From Neophaeotheca triangularis (Eukaryota), in contig BAAIJX010000014.1 in NCBI GenBank assembly GCA_054600435.1, forward strand, positions 186,001 to 250,000: a stretch of 64,000 bases of DNA, written 5' to 3'. A model generated the notes under the pieces. The model did not search any database, had not been told where the DNA came from, and was given only the letters and a program-made list of their open reading frames with translations. The translations under genes and the position numbers were made by a program. The number at the start of each line of letters is the position of its first letter. The stretch's first letter is position 1. Shown piece after piece: positions 22,306-50,971 of the stretch.

Positions 22306-22926
22306 GCCTAGGTACCTGGTAACCTGGAGGTGTTTCTTGCATTATGTCAGCAATCGGCGTCGTTGCCCCGTTGTCTGTCCGGCTTCGTCTTATCGATACC
22401 GCTCTTGGCGCTATATAAGTATTCCTGCTACATGTTGATTACAGTGCTTTCCATCGCGAACAGGAGCAAGCATCTTACTACTACCTACTGGACCTATGTG
22501 GGTGATAGTTACTCACCTGCTTTCTATTTATTCAGTCTGATAATGTAATCCTCGTAAGGAGATGCTAAACCCCGCATCATACCCAAGCAAAACTCGGGGC
22601 CGCATTCACCCGAGAGACCCCGCAAGTTGCAACGGCCTTCCCTTCTTCCACCTCCACTGGACCACTTCACCTCCTCCACTTGCAAGATCTGCGCAGTGCC
22701 GACGCAGACTTTTGGGATACGAACGTACCCCCTATAACATGGAGATGATTGGTGGGCAAATGCTACCGTCTGCAGCCCTGGACGTCTTGACTGAAAACAG
22801 GTAGGAGGGAGGTAAGCTGCTCACCTGCCAACAACATGGCCAGTAATATAATATAAAGGCCAGGCCATGAAGCCTCTCACCACCTCCACCTCATCTTTGT
22901 TTCCGGCCGTTTCGTCTATTGCAAAC

Positions 22927-25900
22927 ATGTTTCGGCTTTTTTTGACATTTTTGGGTCTCCTTCATGCCTGTCGCGGTTTGCTCGAAGACGCTATCGTCTC
23001 GTTCAGCCACAGCTCTGACGCTGTTCCCATTCATGGAGCGACCATTATCTACTCACATGACGAAGCAGCGGGCGTGGGCATCGCTACTGACAGCCTGGCA
23101 GGCGACTGGGAGGCCATCACAGGCAACCGCCCAGACGTTTGGCAGTACGGCTCGGATGAGCCGTCGAGTCCTCAAGGCCACGCCATCATCGTTTCCACTC
23201 TGGACTCGGACTTGATGGTGGAAATCTGCAGGAACGTGGGAGTTGACCTCTCCGTTCTGGAGGGTAAGTGGGAGGCCTTCACGACGTCGCTCGTCTATAA
23301 TGCTCTCCCTGGGCTTGATAGCTCTTTGCTCATACTAGGGAGTGATTCGAGGGGTGCTACTTTTGGTGTGCACACGCTTGCAGAGCAATCAGGCCAATCT
23401 CCGTAAGTTTGATCTATCCAAAGATTGTGTTCAAAGCTAATCCCCTTTTTTTCTTCTTTTTTTTAGTTACCATTACTGGTTGGACGTACCCGCGAAAAAG
23501 CACGACGAAATTTACGCACTTCCCACTGAGACCTACAGCGGAGAGCCTGCCGTCAAATACCGTGGACTGTTCATCAACGATGAGGCGCCAACCTTGACTA
23601 CCTGGTGGTCGAGAAAATTTGGAGAAGATCCGGAGACAGTCCCGTTGAACACGGAATTCTACCGCCACGTCTTTGATTTGCTCCTCCGACTCAAGGCCAA
23701 CTTCATCTGGCCCGCAATGTGGGGATCGTTCGTCCCAGAGCCCGGCAGGAGGTTTTTCACTGACGACCCTGAGAACCAAAGCATGGCGGACGACTTTGGT
23801 ATTGTGGTCTCCACGAGTCATCACGAGCCCATGCAACGTGCCACAAATGAGTGGAATGCTACGGAGATGGGACTTTGGGACTGGACAGTCAACAAGGAGA
23901 ACGTTACTGCATTCATGAGGGAGGGTATCGAGCGAGCGAAGGGTAACGAGTCTTACTACACACTCGGAATGCGAGGACCCAATGACGGCCCCATTGCAGG
24001 CGACGAAGAACAGGAGCCTATAGACATCCTGCGGGAGGTGTTTGACGTTCAACGAGACATTTTAAACGAGGTTCTTGGCAACGACACAAAAATCAACAGT
24101 ACGAGTCGTCTCGCGGAAGCGAACGGGGCGAAGATGAGCTAATAAACAACAGAGGTCTGGACCATTTACAAAGAAGTTTTCCAATACTACGCCGGCGGCC
24201 TTGTCCCGGATGATGATGTGACGCTTATGTTTGCAAATGACAATTTTGGCAATATGTTGCGTTTACCGCTCGCTAACGAGACGGCTAGATCTGGAGGAGT
24301 TGGGGTACGTACTGTCTCAATGCTCTTAGACAGCAGCTGACCTGGATTCCAGATGTACTTCCACCTGCAGTATTACGGGCGACCGCACCATTACAAGTGG
24401 TACAACTCAAACAATCTTGTAAGTAATTAGTAAGAGGCATTAAGGTACATTTTTAGCTAATCAAAAGTAGCCCAAGATCCACAAAGAACTTTACCAGGCG
24501 ATGGAGAGGAACGTCGACCAGATCTGGGTAATGAATGTTGGGGAGATCAAGCCAATGGAATTTCCCTTTGGTTTCATCATGGACTATGCCTGGAACCCTT
24601 CGAGGATCACACCTGAGTCAATTCCCCAATACGTCGAACACTTTACCACTCGCGAGTTTGGACCAGACTATGCGACTGAAATTGCTGAAATACTCTTCGA
24701 ACACAGTCGGTTGGTCGGCAGACGTAACCTTGAGTCGATTGTTGCTTCAACGTACTCCACTCTGAACTACAACGAATCTCAGAGAGTGTTGGGAGAGTGG
24801 GAGGCCCTTGGAATAAGGACACTGGCGTTGGAAGAAACGTTGCCGGAAGAGCACAAATCGCCATTTTTCCATCTGTGTACGTACCCGGTGATGTCGGGTT
24901 TGAACTACCATCAGGTTGTGCTCGGACAGGGTCAGAACTACCAGTATAGCCGAGAGCAACGGAACCAGGCAAATTACCTTGCCTACGACCTCATCGAAAA
25001 TTTCGAGGAATCTTACGACTGGGAACAACGGTACAATGAATTGGAAAATGGCAAATGGGACGGACTCTCATCGCAGAGAAAGTTCGAGCCTAATGCAGTT
25101 TGGATCGATACATCGAGGGACGTCCTGAACAACCTTACTTTCGTCCAACTGCGTCAGAACGGTGACTACCAATGGGGACCTGTCGGAATATACGTAGAGG
25201 GGAGCGATAGTGCAGCAGAGACAGTCTTCCGTGTCCCGTCCCTCGACGAATCAGCTCCCACTGACAGGTGGTGGGCACCTGTCTTACCGACCTTTACGCG
25301 CTATGGAGCTGAATCGCATTTCGTCGAAATGTTCCACCGCGGAGATCACCGTGTGCCTCACAATTGGACCATCTCGAATGACAACGATTGGTTGCACCTC
25401 TCCCTGATGAGTGGCCAGGTTTCTCGCGAAGACCCTCAACAGACGGTGCACTTCTCGGTCGATTGGGACCGCGTACCCACTGACTTCAACGACACTATCA
25501 GAGTCAGAGCAGATTGGGACGCTGTGCCATACTGGGACTACATTTCCATCCCCGTCTTCGGAGCCGCTGTCCCAGAAGATTTCCACGGATTCCCGGAAGC
25601 GAACGGTGTGGTATCCATCGAACCCGCTCACCACCAGCGACAATCTTCTGGCAACATCTCTTTCGCAACGATCCCTTACCTCGGCTCCAGGACCGACTCG
25701 GGCACTCTCGCACTGCGTCCCTACACCCCAGCCCGCGAAGACTCTTTCGAGCCCGATTCCGCCTGGGTCGAATACGACTTCTACCTCTTCGAAGAATCTC
25801 GTGAAGGCGTCAACGCCACCATCTACCTCACATCCGGCCTCGACACCGACCCGACCCTGCCCATGCGGTTCAAATTGACCGTTGACGGCCAAGACGGCGA

Positions 25901-26138
25901 GTACATCCGCATGCTCGAGGACCCGGAGATCTCAGGCGACGTCCCCCCCTCGTGGACGACGGAAATTGAGAACAACATTTGGACGCGGAATGTGACGTTG
26001 GGGAACTTGAGCGAGGGAAGTCATACGCTTAGATGGAATGTCAACTCGCCCGAGGTCTATCTTGAGAAATTGGTGCTGTCGGCTCGTGGCGAGGTGCCCG
26101 ACAGTTATCTTGGACCACCTGAGTCCATGCTGTTGTAG
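22927..26138 (+). CDS. Secreted glycoside hydrolase family 115 (alpha-glucuronidase-like), 5 exons
   Basis: Signal peptide MFRLFLTFLGLL; GSDSRGATFG, PAVKYRGLFINDEAP, FDLLLRLKANFIWPAMW, STSHHEPMQR, TLGMRG, WVMNVGEIKPME, SYLGPPES. Introns are approximately 23403-23466, 24099-24152, 24305-24352 and 24418-24470. Confidence 0.9.
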
Positions 26139-38658: not shown

Positions 38659-39462
38659 TCATTCGACATCGAATTCGACGCTCCCGAACCCCTCGAAGAT
38701 ACCACTCCAGTGCCCCTGCTCCTCCATGGGTATAGCCTCAAGGCAGCTACCTGGAAGAATGAGCTGGCCGGCTTCAAACTCCAAGCCATAGGCCGCGAGA
38801 CGGTTGGCCAGCCATGCAATGCCATTGACTGGGTTGCCAAGGATGGCATTGGTGTTACCAGACATTCTTTCAACGCCATTGAACTTCAGGCTGCCTCTGC
38901 AATCATTGAGTGCGAGCTCGGTGAGCTTTCTAGGGACGGCGCCGAGGATGACGGAACCGCAAGAGCCGTTGTCCGCCAGGGTGTCGGAGTGGTTGATCTC
39001 CCAGTTGGTCACGCGGGAGTCGATGATTTCGATGGCAGGCAAGATGTAGTCGATGGCGTTGATAACATCGATGACGGTCACCCCAGGTCCGCGTAAAGGG
39101 GCTTTTAACACCACCGCTGGCTCCAGTTCCACATAAGGCCGGATGTATTTGCTCCTCTTGAGCGGCGTACCTTCGTAAATGAGGCTGCTGCTGACAAGGA
39201 AGCCGTAGTCGGGCTCGTCGACGCCAAAGGCGGCTTGCATGGCTTTGGCGATGTTGCCCAGTTTGTACCTCACAAGGCGATCGCCATTCTTCACTGCGTT
39301 ACGAGTAGTGATGCGCTGCACTTCGAAGGCACTGTCGGTGTCCAAGGGTGGCCATGTTCGAGATGGCGGTGCCATCGGCTTATTGTCGTTCTTGGCTGTG
39401 TGCAGCGCAGCTGCGATGTCCCGTAACTCGAAAGGGTCCATTTTGCCCCTGAAGTCATTCAT
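38659..39462 (-). CDS. 2-oxo-acid hydratase/decarboxylase of the MhpD/HpcG(HpaH)/DmpH family (FAH superfamily), intronless
   Basis: YKLG...AMQAAFGVDEPDYGFL, VELEPAVVLKAPLRGPGVT, PAIEIIDSR, DTLADNGS, ILGNPVNGIAWLANRL, GQLILPGS. The start is MNDF at 39462 or MDPF at 39441. Confidence 0.88.
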   Translation of the reverse strand: MNDFRGKMDPFELRDIAAALHTAKNDNKPMAPPSRTWPPLDTDSAFEVQRITTRNAVKNGDRLVRYKLGNIAKAMQAAFGVDEPDYGFLVSSSLIYEGTPLKRSKYIRPYVELEPAVVLKAPLRGPGVTVIDVINAIDYILPAIEIIDSRVTNWEINHSDTLADNGSCGSVILGAVPRKLTELALNDCRGSLKFNGVERMSGNTNAILGNPVNGIAWLANRLAAYGLEFEAGQLILPGSCLEAIPMEEQGHWSGIFEGFGSVEFDVE

Positions 39463-40175: not shown

Positions 40176-41724
40176 ATGCCTTCTGAATTCGCTTCGACTC
40201 TGAAAGATCCAAATCTTTTCCAAGATAAATGCTACATTAACGGGCAATGGGTTTCCTCCTTCTCTAGCAAGAGCTTCGAAGTTCACAATCCAGCAACCGA
40301 TGACTTAATCGGCTCATGTCCCGAGGCGACGGTCGATGACATGGAACACGCGATCAAATCGGCCTCGATGGCGTTTCCAGCTTGGAAAGCTGTCTCCGGT
40401 CGCGCGCGAGGCCGCATCCTACGCAGAGTCTTCGACCTTCTTTGCGAAAACAAAGAGGACATTGGCAAAATCATTACCTCGGAGAATGGCAAGTCGATGG
40501 GTGATGGTCAAGGCGAAGTTCTGTTCGCCGCGGGATTTTTCGAATGGTTTGGTGAGGAGGCCGCTCGGGTATATGGCGACATCGCTCCACACAGTAATGC
40601 TTCAAGCCGGACGCGCATCCAAAAGGAACCCGTCGGTGTTTGTGGCCTAATCACCCCTTGGAACTTTCCTATCGCCATGGGTGCGCGCAAGATCGCCGCA
40701 GCGCTCGCAGCGGGCTGCACTGTAGTCCTCAAGTCCGATGGCTTGACCCCCTACGCTTCCAACGCACTCGTGGTGCTGTGCGAGCGCGCTGGCGTACCCA
40801 AAGGCGTTCTCAACGTCGTCACAGCTCTCGACAACACGCCCCAACTTGGCCTGACCATGTGCCAATCTGACACCGTCAGAAAGATCTCCTTCACCGGCTC
40901 GACGCGTGTGGGTAAGCTGCTCATGCAACAGTCGAGCTCCTCACTCAAGAAGCTGAGCTTGGAACTTGGCGGCAACGCACCTTTCATCGTCTTTGACGAC
41001 GCAGACGTCGAAGTCGCCGTCACAGCCGCTCTTGGCAGCAAGTTCAAAGTCACCGGCCAGACGTGTGTCTGCGCCAATCGCATCTTCGTCCAGGAAGGCA
41101 TTTACGATTCTTTCAGCCGACGACTCGTCGAGGAAGTGAAGAAGTTCAAAGTCGGCAACGGCTCTGATACTTCCGTCACCCATGGACCTCTGACCAACGG
41201 CGCCGCAAAGGTCGAGCAACACATCAAAGACGCGAAGAGCAAGAACGCCAGAGTTTTGCTGGGCGGGCAGAAGCTCCCTGCGCTGGGTAGGAACTACCAC
41301 GAACTCACCATCCTCGGCGACGTCGATGATTCAATGATGGTGAACAGCGAGGAGACCTTTGGACCTATTGCAGCTCTCAGCAAGTTCAAAACGGAAGACG
41401 AGGTCGTCAAGCGAGCCAACAGCGCCGAAGTTGGTCTCGCGTCGTATCTGATGACAACCGACTTGGGTAGGTCCCATCGTGTCTCTGAAGCCTTGGAGGC
41501 CGGGATGGTTGCTATCAACACGGGTGTCATTTCTGATCCCGCCGCACCGTAAGTGTACTGCCGGAAAGTGTTTAGCTACACATGAGATTGCTGACTTTGT
41601 ATCTGCTTCCAGGTTCGGAGGTGTGAAGCACTCGGGCTTCGGTCGTGAGGGCAGCAAATACGGTTTAGACGATTACATGGTGTTGAAAACTGTCATCACA
41701 GGCGAGATTAGCTCGCGGCTGTAG
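40176..41724 (+). CDS. Succinate-semialdehyde dehydrogenase-like ALDH (GabD/Uga2 family) with PTS1 (-SRL), 2 exons
   Basis: [35 protein letters not shown] (catalytic Cys), [20 protein letters not shown]. Intron 41549-41612. Ends EISSRL. Confidence 0.92.
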
Positions 41725-42271: not shown

Positions 42272-43767
42272 ATGTTCGATGTCATAATAGTTGGTGCTGG
42301 GCTGAGTGGCCTTCAAGCCGCCTGGTCAGCCAAACAAGCTGGTCTTTCCACCATTGTCGTTGAGGCCAGAAACAGAGTCGGAGGCAAAGTCTGGAGTGAA
42401 CCTACGCTGGGAGGCCTTGGAAAGGCGGACTTGGGAGCTGCTTGGGTTAACACAAATCACCAGCCTAGGATTGCCGCTTACTTGAGGCAATTTGGGCTTG
42501 AGACGGTCGAGCAGCGGCTCACAGGGACCGCCGTCGTGCAAGTCAAGAAGGGCGAGAGGGAGGAGTTCCCGTTTGGCATTACGCCGAATGTGAGTTAGAA
42601 GAAGGGGCTTTGTAAGAGAAGATGTTGTCCGCTAATGATATAACCTCAAGTTCACGCCTGACGAGAAGCGGAATCTCGAATTCATCCGCGACCACATCGA
42701 GGCCGAGTCTCAATCACCAGGCCCGCCGAAGCAAGAGGATGACCAGGTGACTCTCGATCAATATGTACGCAAGCTCGGTGCAACTGCGCAGACGGCTCAG
42801 ATGGTGAATATCTGGTCGCGTGTTATGCATGGCGTCGAGTCCACGGAGCAGTCTGCGGCGTGGTTCATCGACTATTGCAGGCGCAACAAAGGCTTGTTGG
42901 CGATCCGAAAAGATGATCCTGACGGGGGAAACTACCAGAGACTCTTCGCTGGTAAGATGACGCGCACAAAAAATTGGTCGGGCGGCTTTAGTAATCTTCT
43001 GTGCAGGCACCCAATCCATTGCTGAAGGTGTTGCCGATCTACTCGGCCGCGAAAACATACGACTCGGTTCTCCAGTAGCATCGATTGCAAACGACAAGAA
43101 CCATGTCACGGTGACGACAAACAACGGCGATGTCTTTTCCGCCAGGAAGTGCATCATCTCCATGCCAAGTACTATGTTGAAAGATCTGAACTTCTCTCCA
43201 CCGCTACCACAACGCCTACGAGAAGTCACGAATTCTACGATTCTCGGTCACTACAACAAATCAATACTAATCTATCGCAAACCCTGGTGGAGAGAAGCTG
43301 GCTACAATGGCTTCGTCATGAGCTTCGACAGCCCCGTGTGCTTGGGCCGGGACACCAGCATTGACGACAAGGGCCTATACATGCTCACTTGTTTCGTCAA
43401 CGGTGCGAACGGAGAAGCCTGGTCAAAGTTGTACCCCCATCAGCGCCGCAAGTCAGTCATCGACCAGGTGGCCTTTCTCTACGGTCAAGGACCAGACTCG
43501 GAAGTCTACCGCCCAGTCGAGGTCTTTGACCAGATTTGGAAGCATGAGAAGTACAGTCAAGGTGCTTTGGCGCCTATCCATGCGCTGGGTCACTATACCG
43601 GGTACGCAGATGTCTATGGTAAGCCCACAGGGAATGTGCACTTTGTGGGGACTGAGTACTCCCCTGAGTGGAAGGGCTACATGGAAGGTGCATTGTGTTC
43701 TGGGGAGATTGGGGCCGGAGAAGTCGCTGAAAGCCTTCGAAACAACTCCGCAAGGGCCAAATTGTGA
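42272..43767 (+). CDS. Flavin-containing amine oxidase (MAO/putrescine oxidase family) with PTS1 (-AKL), 3 exons
   Basis: DVIIVGAGLSGL, EARNRVGGK, DLGAAWVN, HFVGTE...WKGYMEGAL. Introns are 42590-42650 and 42952-43006. Ends SARAKL. Confidence 0.92.
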
Positions 43768-44468
43768 GTCGGCTCTATACAAAACATAAAAATGTTCCTT
43801 TTTCTCTTGATCTCTCGTTCTTTCGATATTCCCTATTCCAGCGATTTCCGGTACATAAATAGCAGTGGGGCGAAAGGAAGAGCAATACCCATTCCCAGAT
43901 GCTATCCTACATCTGTGCTCGATACGGGAGCTTACTAGACGACATGGAATCGTAGATTGCAGTTCCGTCGTTTTCTCAGTCGCAAGGCTAAACCTTTGAG
44001 GCCCTGGAGATGCAATTCTGCCCGATTTCCCGATCCGGCAACATTGTGCGAATGTACCTCCTAGCGACTCTCAGGGGCCAAACGAAGGCCCTTCCTTCAC
44101 AATTGCACTCGCCAAGTAAAACAAATTGGAATCGACAATTGTGGGCATTCCAAACACTACTGATGCATTGCCTTTCATGGAAATCTGCTCGAGCGACCAG
44201 ACGTGAGCTGTTTCGAGCCATTTGAGATTCCATGTCTCTTTCAGTCCAAAATAAGCTCGACAGGAGCCCGGGTCTACAATGTGTGCTGGGCCTACCAGAA
44301 TTCGAGGATCAATTAGTGCATTGCAGCATCTCGAGCGATCCTTAAGTCTAAGCAAATTGACAACTGAATCACATTTCCGTTACGTCTTTTGCTAGGTTAC
44401 TCGTTGACATCCGGTACAGAATGCCTTCTGCGGAACCCGGGTCGAAACGCAACCTTGATCATAACATC

Positions 44469-45424
44469 ATGGGTAGCTCTACTATTGAAATGCCAGAATC
44501 AGATTACGAGAAGCGTCGCCTCGATGCCCGGAGTCTTTCGCATCCTGCCTATTACCAAGCCCATCCGGTACAGAAACGTCTTCAACGAAAACGAGGAGGA
44601 GGACGCACGCTGACTTGTCATATCCAGGCACCGATGGCTATGGGCGGCTTCGCGACAACGCTCCTAACCGTCTCACTCGCCATGATGGAGTTTCGAGGCG
44701 TTCACGTCCAGACCGTCTTCGTCGGAAACCTCTGCTTTGTAGCGGGAATCGGCCTATTGATTTCTGCGCAGTGGGAAATGGCCAGGGGCAACACCTTCTC
44801 CTATACGGTTCTCCAGTCTTTTGGTACCAAGTCACCGGTTCCATTTAATTACAAGGAAGATTGTGGCTGATGTGCTACAAAGGTCTGTTCTACAGCGGCT
44901 ACGGCGCGATTATGATTCCTGTCCTGGGAATCGCTGATGCATACGGTGGAGATGATACACCCGAATACTACAATGCCATGGGTTTCTTCGTTCTGAGCAA
45001 GTCGCAATACCATGCCAAGGTCGTTGCGCGGCCATACTTTACTAACAACACCGATAGTCTGGGCCGTCCTGAACATCTTCTTCCTGATCGCTTCCATGCC
45101 ATTGTAAGCTTCCGACCAGATCGAACCCCAGTCCAGCGCAATACAGCTAACTAGTCAACTACTAGTAACATCGTCTACATCCTCATCTTCACAACGGTCG
45201 AGCTCTGCTTCGCCCTTGATGCCAGCTCATACTTCGCCCGCGCTGACGGCAAAATCGCGACTTCAGATGCCCTAATGAAGTCGGCCGGGGTTTTTGGCTT
45301 CATCTCGGGACTCTTGGGCTACTATACGACTCTGCACTACTTGTGCTCGCATGCATTGCCTTTCAGGGTTCCGATGGGAGATACTTCCAAGTACTTTGCA
45401 AGAATGAAGCATGGCAGGTTGTGA
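44469..45424 (+). CDS. GPR1/FUN34/YaaH (AceTr/Ato) family transporter, 5 exons
   Basis: Spliced HPAPMAMGGFATTLL...QWEMARGNTFSYTV..FGLFY..YG...YNAMGFFVLIWAVLN. Introns are 44568-44627, 44824-44882, 44997-45057 (GC-AG) and approximately 45104-45165. The stop TGA is at 45422-45424. Confidence 0.88.
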
Positions 45425-46047: not shown

Positions 46048-46356
46048 TCACGACGAATGCGAATTGTCGGCGCAAGACCAAGCAGAGCTGCCATTCTCGC
46101 CGCTGTACTCATTCACAATCCCGACAATCGCTCCATAAGATCCAGCAACCATGCAGAAAGTCCCTATGAAGATGACGAACACACTCCAGCCCACCATGCG
46201 AGTCACGTCACCTCGCAAGGCCGTGATATCCCTAGCAGCCCCAGTAGGCACGCGGTCGATATGCTCGATCTTGGTATCATGCTTATTCGTTTCGGGATCG
46301 TTTGAAAGCGAGTCGCGAATGGAGGACCGAGAATGGAGTTGGGAAGAAGACGCCAT
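46048..46356 (-). pseudogene. Internally deleted relic of an Mtr-type (Aa_trans) amino-acid permease
   Basis: A 102-aa ORF with a hydrophilic N-terminal tail joined directly to WSVFVIFIGTFCMVAGSYGAIVGIVNEY...SAWSCADNS, the last TM and SCADNS terminus typical of fungal Mtr-like permeases (normally about 11 TM). Confidence 0.7.
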
Positions 46357-47083: not shown

Positions 47084-48194
47084 ATGGGCGCTCTTACTCA
47101 GGTGCTGAGCGCGCAGGACGTGTCCAAGAACGTAATGAGACCCAATCACAAATTCACCAACCTTCCAGAGTCCCTTGTCAAAGAAGCAGGCATGGTCGAA
47201 ACCAGAGACTTCAATGCCGTCGAGCACATCAAGTACGAGGCACCATCGAAGATTTTCACTACTCACGAGCTCGGCTTGGGAGAGATCGGAATCTCCAATA
47301 CCGCAGTCTCAGAACCGTTCTCGCTGTTCTCCGAGGACGCCATCAAGCAGATGAGGCGCGAGGTCTTCAATCCAGAGGTGCTGGATCGTTTTCACTGCCA
47401 AACGGGGCCCTCATCCGGACAAGTGCGCGGTCACTGCCCCGAGTAAGTCAACTTGAACGCCAGTTTCACTCCGCAATCCACCATTTTTGACACTGCATCG
47501 CTCTAGATACGCGCCTTTCATATACAACGCCTGGAACAGCCCCGAACTCTTGAAGATCGTCTCGGATATCGCGGGGGTCGATCTCGTGCCCGCAATGCCC
47601 TACGACATGGGCCACACAAACATATCCATCAACTCCACGGGCGGCGAAGAGAAAGACTCAATCGCGCCGGGCGAGCAAACCGCAACCAACTCGTCCGGGT
47701 ACTGCGAATCCGCCTTCGGTTGGCACACGGACAGCTACCCCTTCGTGGTGGTCACTATGCTCTCCGACTGCGAGGGCATGGTAGGAGGCGAGACGGCTAT
47801 CCGCACAGGCAACGGTACGCCGATGAAAGCCCGCGGGCCCAGGTTGGGCACTGCCGTCGTGATGCAAGGCCAATACGTGCAGCATGCAGCGACGCCAGCA
47901 GTGAGCGGCCGCGAGCGCATTTCCATGGTCACCAGCTTCAGGCCCAAAAGCGCAACCATCAAGGACGGCACCATTCTGCGCGGTGTGCGCAACATCAGCA
48001 ATCTCGAGACGCTCTACAGGCAGTTCAGCGAGTATCGTTTGGAGAACCTGGAGGATCGTGTGCGAGACGAGCTGCGCCTCTTGCACAAGAATCATACGGC
48101 GAAGCGCAAGTTTGATACTGCACAGCTTCGGGAATGGCTTTTCGAGCAGAGGGAGTACATCGATCACATGCTGAGGGAAGTGCGAGCGGACTAG
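47084..48194 (+). CDS. Uncharacterised Fe(II)/2-oxoglutarate-dependent oxygenase, 2 exons
   Basis: GWHTDSYPF (HxD), GGET, QGQYVQHAA (distal His), RISMVTS (2OG-binding Arg). Intron 47443-47506. Confidence 0.75.
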
Positions 48195-48874: not shown

Positions 48875-50971
48875 TCACCCTAGCATGGTCTGCAGCCGCT
48901 TATCGTGAACTACATGCATCCAATGGGCGTAATCCTTCAGCTCATCCAAGCGCTCCCATACTTCGTTGATGACATCGAGCAGCTGCATGATTTGCTTCTG
49001 CGGGTATTTACGGGAGAGAGCAAGCATGCGCTCCTTCACAAAGTCCCTGGAATCGCTGATTTCCTTGCTCCTGGCGTCATCGGAATCTTGAGAAGTCTTT
49101 GGAAGTCGTAGTTGGCTCGCGCATGAGATGAGGGTTAGGAGCTGCATTCGACACGCTCCGGAGGTGACGGGAATGCACTTGATGATGTTCAGAGTGAATT
49201 CGGCAAGGGCGCAGGCGCATGATTCTACATAGTTTGAATTGGCTTGATGGTCCGCGTCTGCTGGCGGGTGGAAACGTTGATCGTAGCACTTTGGGAAGAG
49301 AGAGCCGGCCGCGAGTTTGTTTTCGAGTATCGTGGGAAAGCATGTGTATATTTCCAGGAGAGCAATATGCCGATTGGCGTCTGCAGACCGAATTAAATCG
49401 ACTTTTGGCGTGGCGCCGTGGCCGTAGTCAAGAATTGCATCCTCTTGTGGTATGACGATGGCGTACACGAACTCTTCTAACGACAGAGCCCAATGCACAT
49501 CAATCTCTGGAAGATCTGCCTCGGGCTGGCGGCGTGCTGGTTGTACGTCGGTACACCGCCGCCTTCGGAGCACTCTCCCGACCTCCCCTAAAGCAAAATG
49601 AAGCTCTGTACTGATGCCGGTCCAAGGGTGCGGTAGTTCTGGCTCGCGTTCACTCTCGCCTGGAACATGAGGGTTCGGGGAGCCATATCCTGGAAACGGG
49701 GCCATTGGCACAGGATCGATAAAGCTTGCGAGCATTTCCCAATGCATAAGAGAGTCCGTGAAGAACTTCTCCTCTCTAAGGTCGCTCGAGCCATGCGCAG
49801 TACCGCAGAGATAACTTTGCATCAGGCTTCGAGCGACGGAAAGATATTGAAGGCCCAGGTTTGAGGGTTGCTGCCATGCGGAGGAAAGACCAAGGAGGAG
49901 GAGACTGACCATGATGTTTTCCATGGGGAGCTTTCCCGCGCGGTTGAGTTGTAGGTCGAGTTGCAATGACCTCCACGCTTGCAAGTGCTTGAGTTGTCCA
50001 AGCGGACCCATGTAGAGATAATGGTTGGCGAGATGGGCAATGGCCATACTTTGTATAGCAATGTGAATTGTCTTTGACGATTTCATCTCTTCCACCATTG
50101 TCCGAAAGGGGTTGAGTGTAGAGTCAAAACACGAGAACAGAGGGCATACTGCAGTGAAATAGTGTTGCACCAAATGTTCTTCCGAGAAATGGGCGACCGA
50201 CGAAGGAGTTGACAGGCGGTAGAATGTGCCCAGAAGGCTTCTTGCACCCGGTCTCAGCCCCGAAGAAGGTGCCATTGCGCGCTCGGCAGAGGTTCGGGTG
50301 TCTCTAGGATTGGTCCCTTGCGGTCCCAGACGTTGAAGCGGTTGCCTCTGCGTCAGCGGGTCTGTCCATGGGAACAGTTGGGCCTGCGCCTGGTAGTCTA
50401 AACTTGGTGGCATGCTGATAGAGCCAAGGTTGAACATGGAGATATCGTTGGCCGTCATATCATTGGCAAATGGCATACCAAATTGCCAGAGGTCGTCAAA
50501 ATCCGTGCCTAGTGCAGCCTGGTCACGGTAGGGGAAGGTTACATCCACGGGTCCGGCTGGCTGCACAGGAGCATCTTCTACGACGGCCTGTGAATCACCG
50601 CCAATCGGTGACTCTGGCAGGGTCGAGTGGTCGACATGGGCAGAGATTTGCTGAGTCTGGTTGACCTGGCTGGTACCATGGATTGTCTGCAGAGCGTTTG
50701 TCTCTTCGGTTGGCGGAACGCAAGTGGTGGCGGCCGGCTCGGTGCAGGCGACGTTTGCTTCATCAGCGGCATGGTTCCTGAAATCTGCACTCGCTCCGTT
50801 TAATCTTTCGTGCTTTCGCGACCATTTGTACTGGAAATCGTAGCCGGGGCATTCAACCGAAGCTCGTTGGCAAGCTTGACAGGCAGGCCTTGCCTGATCG
50901 CACTTTATTTTCTTCGTCTTGCATCGAGCACAGCCCTCACGGGACTTGGAAGGTTTGGCCACCCGTTTCAT
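48875..50971 (-). CDS. Zn(II)2Cys6 transcription factor with Fungal_trans_2-type C-terminal domain
   Basis: SREGCARCKTKKIKCDQARPACQACQRASVECPGY; LVQHYF...FDSTLNPFR, HWEMLASF, PHPWTG, HWMHVV. Confidence 0.9.
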   Translation of the reverse strand: MKRVAKPSKSREGCARCKTKKIKCDQARPACQACQRASVECPGYDFQYKWSRKHERLNGASADFRNHAADEANVACTEPAATTCVPPTEETNALQTIHGTSQVNQTQQISAHVDHSTLPESPIGGDSQAVVEDAPVQPAGPVDVTFPYRDQAALGTDFDDLWQFGMPFANDMTANDISMFNLGSISMPPSLDYQAQAQLFPWTDPLTQRQPLQRLGPQGTNPRDTRTSAERAMAPSSGLRPGARSLLGTFYRLSTPSSVAHFSEEHLVQHYFTAVCPLFSCFDSTLNPFRTMVEEMKSSKTIHIAIQSMAIAHLANHYLYMGPLGQLKHLQAWRSLQLDLQLNRAGKLPMENIMVSLLLLGLSSAWQQPSNLGLQYLSVARSLMQSYLCGTAHGSSDLREEKFFTDSLMHWEMLASFIDPVPMAPFPGYGSPNPHVPGESEREPELPHPWTGISTELHFALGEVGRVLRRRRCTDVQPARRQPEADLPEIDVHWALSLEEFVYAIVIPQEDAILDYGHGATPKVDLIRSADANRHIALLEIYTCFPTILENKLAAGSLFPKCYDQRFHPPADADHQANSNYVESCACALAEFTLNIIKCIPVTSGACRMQLLTLISCASQLRLPKTSQDSDDARSKEISDSRDFVKERMLALSRKYPQKQIMQLLDVINEVWERLDELKDYAHWMHVVHDKRLQTMLG

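Follow-up and report, generated by a model that had tools for sequence, protein, structure and literature searches.

We describe a hydratase gene from the fungus Neophaeotheca triangularis that very probably belongs to an ancient, widespread transfer of a mis-annotated enzyme subfamily from bacteria to fungi. The transfer has probably been tabulated already, and the value of the finding lies in two parallel gene clusters around the enzyme. We define a new subfamily together with matching clusters in tractable bacteria (Arthrobacter, Rhodococcus opacus) and in fungi; taken together, these clusters suggest a route of amine catabolism and, in fungi, a set of genes built up around one transferred member.

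The gene was found in a 64-kb stretch of genomic DNA (the window) from an organism that we take to be a Dothideomycete. A sequence-only reading had described an intact, intronless gene carrying the glutamate motifs VELEP and AIEIIDSR, spliced neighbors and no partner aldolase in the window. All four observations are borne out. The gene is one exon with a frame uninterrupted from ATG to stop codon (38659-39462, minus strand, 267 aa), both motifs are present, the neighboring aldehyde dehydrogenase and amine oxidase genes contain one and two introns (GT..AG), respectively, and the window holds no MhpE-, HpaI/HpcH- or DHDPS-type match at E<0.01. Because homologues usually measure 260 aa, like the product of an alternative in-frame ATG at 39441, the true start may be Met8. 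We found no match to an extradiol dioxygenase, luciferase-like monooxygenase or flavin reductase within the 64 kb (aldolase and dioxygenase threshold E<0.01), and no linkage of the hydratase to a tautomerase, MhpE/MhpF or an extradiol dioxygenase. The relevant features are as follows.

38659..39462, minus strand: hydratase-like gene, KLGNIA subfamily, MhpD/HpcG fold; single exon, 267 aa
40176..41724, plus strand: SSADH-like aldehyde dehydrogenase, 494 aa; one intron (41549-41612), divergent from the hydratase gene
42272..43767, plus strand: flavin amine oxidase of the MAO-A/B and putrescine-oxidase type, 459 aa; two introns
44420..45424, plus strand: GPR1/FUN34/YaaH-family transporter, a candidate cluster member; spliced, start approximate
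46054..46191, minus strand: remnant of an Aa_trans amino-acid transporter; last ~45 codons only
47085..48194, plus strand: Fe(II)/2-oxoglutarate oxygenase-like gene, a candidate cluster member; HxD motif, one intron
48875..50971, minus strand: Zn2Cys6 transcription factor, a possible regulator

The hydratase gene is single-copy in the 25.4-Mb source genome (G000) and is surrounded by conserved eukaryotic genes (septin, MTR4, BMT5, BCAT, TAF13 and a JAB/MPN gene). Its copy number and its spliced and conserved eukaryotic flanks rule out contamination. Its GC3 is 0.69, compared with 0.57-0.77 in eight neighboring frames and 0.82-0.91 in four homologues from the actinobacterial donor group. The lack of introns is weak evidence for a bacterial origin, because native neighbors are also long single frames (MTR4 1084, the Zn2Cys6 factor 698 and BCAT 479 codons). 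The window also contains an ordinary spliced GH115 glucuronidase-family gene (22852-26135, plus strand).

An alignment-based predicted structure of the hydratase (pLDDT 94.7) has its best structural match in HpcG-Mg (PDB ID 2EB6; TM 0.92, 35% identity). The model superimposes on HpcG, NahK and MhpD with TM 0.91-0.93, and on FAHD1 with ∼0.58. PF01557 is matched with 32.9 bits (cut-off 23.9), and the modeled protein is assigned to the FAH superfamily, in the MhpD/HpcG structural branch with an N-terminal helical extension. Lys-67, Asp-85, Glu-112, Glu-114 and Glu-145 align with Lys-61, Asp-79, Glu-106, Glu-108 and Glu-139 of Escherichia coli HpcG, and are invariant or nearly so in an alignment of 120 sequences, with Lys-67 and the three glutamates invariant. 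We take the HpcG-equivalent glutamates to bind Mg2+ and the Lys/Asp pair to be catalytic. Asp-85 is of the hydratase type, and position 75 is a methionine rather than the decarboxylase-type lysine.

Among the equivalog models, the protein reaches 188.7 bits with TIGR02312 (HpcG/HpaH; cut-off 351.5), 183.1 with TIGR03220 (DmpE; 408.8), 164 with NF008461 (MhpD; 350) and 158.4 with TIGR03218 (DmpH/NahK; 350.55), the lowest of the four, whereas true DmpE and DmpH controls pass their cut-offs with 491 and 478 bits. Of the best 120 of 2985 homologues, 118 have the lid motif KLGN[IV]A, and the classic K[IVA]GLTS is found in none. In a 50%-identity library the best four matches share 49-59% identity and most others 34-44%, and the ESM Atlas clusters nearest to the hydratase are bacterial and say nothing about its range. 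Two library entries of ∼500 aa (P0545 and P0549) contain two tandem MhpD-type domains. The earlier assignment to the MhpD/HpcG/DmpH family therefore stands for fold and metal ligands but not for membership, with scores of about half of each cut-off and a topology test (below) against it. By sequence comparison the hydratase is placed in a separate, uncharacterized "KLGNIA" subfamily that is not MhpD, HpcG, DmpE or DmpH. From the model it is predicted to be HpcG-like in action while lying outside every named family, and hydration or dehydration is its likely chemistry.

Among the best 120 of 2985 homologues, the named fungal proteins come from Eurotiomycetes, Sordariomycetes and Dothideomycetes (60-66% identity), the named bacterial ones from Rhodococcus, Streptomyces, Arthrobacter and Sinomonas (62-64%), and all named eukaryotic matches are Pezizomycotina. 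A scan of bacterial genomes returned 42 loci, 40 from Actinomycetota and two from Burkholderiaceae, which split into subgroup A (n = 10, 58-63% identity) and subgroup B (n = 32, 45-54%). We calculated three trees, one of 100 rows (quick, mixture model), one of 56 of those 100 rows (careful, LG+G4) and one of 30 rows (careful, mixture model). In all three, the fungi form a single clade (support 95/95 in the 56-row and 99/93 in the 30-row tree) inside actinobacterial subgroup A (99/98 and 100/98). All three trees agree in setting the whole subfamily (100/100) apart from MhpD, XylJ, DmpE, DmpH and HpcG. Joining the fungi to the classic MhpD/HpcG-type enzymes is rejected (p-AU 0.00026). AU tests do not reject a sister position of the fungi to the entire subfamily (p 0.059 and 0.133) or to subgroup A (p 0.37 and 0.36), and transfer into fungi is the simplest reading because the identified relatives are bacterial under either topology.

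We consider a bacterial origin of the fungal hydratase highly probable from these sequences, and we are somewhat inclined to see the donors in soil Actinomycetota and the recipient in an early filamentous ascomycete lineage. The sequence-only reading had proposed a horizontal transfer from a bacterial meta-cleavage family: the bacterial origin holds, with the fungi nested in the best trees, and the meta-cleavage donor does not, with such genes at 0/42 loci. It had named broad fungal distribution without nesting in bacteria as evidence against transfer; in the comparison now made the distribution is indeed broad, and the best trees nest the fungi. Nor is the transfer peculiar to N. triangularis: it is ancient and common to Eurotiomycetes, Sordariomycetes and Dothideomycetes, and GC3 is at host level. 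A recent or lineage-specific transfer is rejected by this breadth of distribution and by the codon composition.

Transfer in the opposite direction, from fungi to Actinomycetota, would fit the rarity of subgroup A in bacteria and its frequency in Pezizomycotina. At E<=1e-60 the center genome was the sole match among 401 genomes of its phylum, and in one genus 9/151 genomes matched at E<=1e-85. Subgroup A, however, keeps the operon of the deeper, bacteria-only subgroup B, an operon that the fungi lack; the identified outgroups are bacterial, and subgroup A sequences cluster roughly by actinobacterial family in the 100-row tree. We regard this direction as very improbable. As for the spread within fungi, descent with loss and fungus-to-fungus transfer are indistinguishable in our trees, because the fungal backbone is poorly supported and a single origin of the Dothideomycete sequences is not rejected (p 0.20). 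Several cluster transfers between fungi after one bacterial entry would agree with the failure to recover the classes in the fungal subtree, with two paralogues in several aspergilli, and with the finding that the window protein is no more distant from Eurotiales (65-66%) than from other Dothideomycetes (61%) among the best 120 of 2985 homologues. These identities reflect a long branch, the codon composition of the gene matches its host, and together with the monophyly test this makes the scenario rather unlikely next to a single entry followed by descent and loss.

The transfer has a probable precedent. Event438 in supplementary file 3 of Liu et al., mBio (PMC11708051), comprises at least 11 fungal genes among the 14,928 rows available, from Sordariomycetes, Leotiomycetes and, among the matches listed, one Dothideomycete. 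Their best match is a Rhodococcus "2-hydroxypenta-2,4-dienoate hydratase" (57-76%). For Thelonectria and Cercospora, Event438 gives identities of 74.9 and 66.4%, which match the values of 73.1 and 65.3% that we obtain with the R. opacus protein. We equate the two by names and identities rather than by sequences, so that the hydratase transfer is probably already cataloged as this event, which probably adds Leotiomycetes to its range (PMC11708051). Event438 is a table entry only, and the main text of that paper, as available to us, never uses the word "hydratase". Because the same survey counts 20,093 prokaryote-derived fungal genes, 36% of them from Actinobacteria, the transfer alone would be unremarkable. 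The accessible portions of three other papers touch the subject: fungal mhpD is counted as a meta-cleavage gene in PMC12773724, where transfer is argued for catA only; PMC7842363 names no hydratase gene; and PMC9204233 reports a gene of the yeast Blastobotrys annotated as 2-oxopent-4-enoate hydratase. The terms "pentenoate" and "TodF" are absent from the HGT-Finder supplement (PMC4626719), and the portion of PMC13744829 available holds nothing relevant. No title or abstract opening on the bacterial or the fungal cluster was found in the literature covered, which extends to neither subscription journals nor bioRxiv supplements. The new part seems to be the gene context, two parallel clusters that are seemingly unstudied.

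In the bacteria, an NtaA/DmoA-type monooxygenase and a flavin reductase each occur at 40/42 loci (two loci are truncated), a Vibrio harveyi-type aldehyde (semialdehyde) dehydrogenase at 37 and an IclR regulator at 34. The dehydrogenase is presumably kin to 2-oxoglutarate semialdehyde dehydrogenases. A flavin amine oxidase accompanies the hydratase at 25/42 loci, including 10/10 in subgroup A; an HpcH-type aldolase is found at 14/42 loci and in 0/10 of subgroup A, and a ProV-type ABC subunit at 11/42. None of the 42 loci contains MhpB, MhpC, MhpE, MhpF, catechol 2,3-dioxygenase, HpaD or 4-oxalocrotonate tautomerase, and no amidase family was seen in the operons. Further subgroup-A loci combine monooxygenase, amine oxidase and dehydrogenase in 8/9 cases, the remaining one being an orphan, and often include a SnoaL protein and a second FAH protein.

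Individual bacterial loci show additional features. On one Arthrobacter contig (G003:C58:27516-45626; L013 and L078) an A and a B operon lie 17 kb apart, each with its own monooxygenase, and their presence in one genome suggests two specificities. Two monooxygenase genes adjoin at L080 and L083. At a metagenome locus (L050:8725-11168) no flavin amine oxidase was seen; the operon is followed there by genes for a RidA protein and for an Fe-S flavoprotein of the old-yellow-enzyme type. Five loci (L008, L020, L022, L029 and L035) have an enolase-family gene near the operon, whose best match is cis-3-hydroxy-L-proline dehydratase (268 bits, cut-off 500), a hint of proline-like substrates.

The fungal cluster offers similar functions. 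The window dehydrogenase scores 610 bits with TIGR01780 (cut-off 646) and is an extra SSADH paralogue, because a second SSADH-like gene lies on contig C2. The amine oxidase presumably resembles fumonisin amine oxidases. The Aa_trans remnant shares 58% identity with the Penicillium cluster transporter, and intact paralogues exist elsewhere in the genome. The Fe(II)/2-oxoglutarate oxygenase has no Pfam match; HalD/BesD-like clusters are among its Atlas neighbors, and to judge by the HxD motif it may hydroxylate a free amino acid. In nine assemblies, from Penicillium, Hypoxylon, Parahypoxylon, Colletotrichum and Cosmosporella, the hydratase is by gene number only one to four positions away from an amine oxidase, an Aa_trans transporter or an SSADH-like gene (for example, Hypoxylon KAI1408024/025; P. 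angulare N7478_001707/001710; P. brevicompactum N7452_004558/004561; C. fioriniae COL5a_003994/003997; Parahypoxylon AAE478_007486/007489; Cosmosporella 093580/093620). At least 15 of the best 120 of 2985 hydratases have the same longest-contig size as one of the aldehyde dehydrogenases listed, and in four cases the contigs are <10 kb; this indirect pairing, picked by eye, gives a lower bound. The amine oxidases looked up in Aspergillus niger, A. oryzae, A. nomiae, A. homomorphus and the C. gloeosporioides group do not, judging by accession, neighbor the hydratase; these may be other paralogues.

The fungal partners are not those of the bacterial operon. Transfer of the whole operon is rejected by identities of 25-27% between the amine oxidases and 25% between the dehydrogenases. 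On these values the hydratase appears as the sole transferred gene, surrounded by three like functions in both kingdoms. The closest NtaA/DmoA-type monooxygenase in G000 (C7:559176-560581, 47% identical to the actinobacterial one) was set aside as a missing partner: it is unlinked, on another contig, near an SfnG-like luciferase-family gene. In this region (also L068:2741-5639) ∼4 kb separate the monooxygenase gene from a second gene of the luciferase family, which is fused to or abuts a zinc-ADH-like frame, and the two are possibly a sulfur-scavenging pair of bacterial origin. A flavin reductase was not found in G000 with one query.

These neighborhoods make an amine-catabolic role of the hydratase likely. 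From the fold, conserved catalytic positions, subfamily, tree position and neighborhoods established above we infer a route in which each reaction, the step order and the class of substrate are proposed. We lean, by a little, towards a small catabolic module for an amine or non-protein amino acid, an ancient actinobacterial acquisition whose hydratase would perform Mg2+-dependent (de)hydration of a 2-oxo acid. The permease would import the amine or amino acid, and the flavin amine oxidase would remove the amine by oxidative deamination. The resulting 2-oxo acid would be bound by the hydratase through Mg2+ on the three glutamates, and water would be added or removed at C4, as in HpcG chemistry. 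The SSADH paralogue would then convert a C4-C5 semialdehyde (succinic, glutaric or 2-oxoglutaric) to a TCA-cycle acid. Two established schemes would accommodate such a route. In the HpcG-HpcH route, hydration and aldol cleavage yield pyruvate and succinic semialdehyde. The Weimberg and hydroxyproline routes need no aldolase: there, a 4-hydroxy-2-oxo acid is dehydrated to 2-oxoglutarate semialdehyde. The latter logic, which we favor slightly, would explain why an aldolase is missing in the fungal cluster and at the ten subgroup-A loci. Against the module stand this missing aldolase, the decayed transporter in G000 and the absence from the window of the monooxygenase and reductase that are near-universal in the bacterial operon; fungal and bacterial substrates may therefore differ.

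The proposal that a bacterial gene had been recruited to a new function holds for the recruitment by fungi; the function itself may be the old one, because in bacterial and fungal clusters alike the hydratase is accompanied by a flavin amine oxidase and by a dehydrogenase of the semialdehyde type. Tentatively, and with less conviction than for the module, we suggest that the subfamily may mark a hitherto undescribed pathway that breaks down a natural amine or N-heterocycle. In Actinomycetota this pathway would use a DmoA-type monooxygenase, a NicA2/MAO-N-type oxidase and a KGSADH-type dehydrogenase. Fungi, having borrowed the hydratase alone, would have converged on it using their own MAO-B-type oxidase, an SSADH duplicate, an amino-acid permease and possibly the Fe/2-oxoglutarate oxygenase in place of the monooxygenase.

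The same origin and pathway could involve another chemistry, in which the compound made by the oxidase or monooxygenase would be the substrate of a decarboxylase, a tautomerase or an enamine/imine hydrolase. The fold of the 4-oxalocrotonate decarboxylase NahK is the same (TM 0.92), the lid differs from all references (Asn-70-Ile-71 for Leu-Thr; Glu-242 where HpcG has Arg), the operons lack an amidase family and one has a RidA protein. Asp-85 is nevertheless as in hydratases (Val in the DmpH control), Met-75 replaces the DmpH lysine and the DmpH model gives the lowest score, so that we judge another chemistry to be a minority prospect and retain (de)hydration.

If the protein were instead a functional MhpD/HpcG-type enzyme of a lower aromatic pathway, acting for instance after cleavage of 3-hydroxyanthranilate and with incidental neighbors, it would have the fold and catalytic positions observed, and an HpcH-family aldolase is encoded elsewhere in G000. 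The extradiol 3-hydroxyanthranilate route of A. terreus has a product that "may undergo ... decarboxylation and hydration" (PMC7842363, in the portion available), and the mhpD counts of PMC12773724, likewise as available, speak for such a role. This reading has to contend with the half-cut-off scores where DmpE and DmpH controls pass, the rejected grouping with the classic enzymes, the lack of meta-cleavage genes at all donor-group loci, the failure to find MhpE in G000 with one query, and the recurrent linkage to amine oxidase and dehydrogenase in three fungal classes. We think it quite improbable compared with amine catabolism. Fungal proteins of the subfamily carry database names such as "TodF product hydratase" and "2-keto-4-pentenoate hydratase", and because many Aspergillus, Penicillium and Colletotrichum genes are labeled "TodF product hydratase" or MhpD, they can be taken as a sign of aromatic meta-cleavage in fungi. 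Our results suggest that this label is wrong.

Among known systems, the trigonelline (Tgn) and pyridine (Pyr) pathways, which we take to be two-component flavin ring-opening pathways, and the homarine genes homABCDER (PMC13236597, available in part) resemble the bacterial donor operon in their flavin-supplying and oxygenase pair, aldehyde dehydrogenase and betaine-type transporters. The hom system, in contrast, has a peptidase-like HomC, and the homarine pathway is rejected, since the available text of that paper names neither a hydratase nor an amine oxidase. The monooxygenase of the donor operon is closest to DmoA and LadA. The 4-oxalocrotonate decarboxylases DmpH/XylI/NahK (5D2F-K, TIGR03218) share the fold (TM 0.92) and metal ligands with our protein, which has Met for the DmpH lysine and Asp for its Val. 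The 2-oxopent-4-enoate hydratases MhpD/DmpE/XylJ/TodG (1SV6, 2WQT, 8IH6) likewise share fold (TM 0.91) and metal ligands, but only 30-32% identity; they form a separate clade, and the hydratase lacks MhpE/MhpF partners. The best match in sequence and structure is the 2-oxo-hept-3-ene-1,7-dioate hydratase HpcG/HpaH (2EB4-6, TIGR02312; E 4e-46, TM 0.92). The fungal protein differs from it in having the lid KLGNIA instead of KIGLTS, Glu-242 instead of Arg and no hpa genes nearby, and at 35% identity it keeps the equivalents of Lys-61, Asp-79, Glu-106, Glu-108 and Glu-139.
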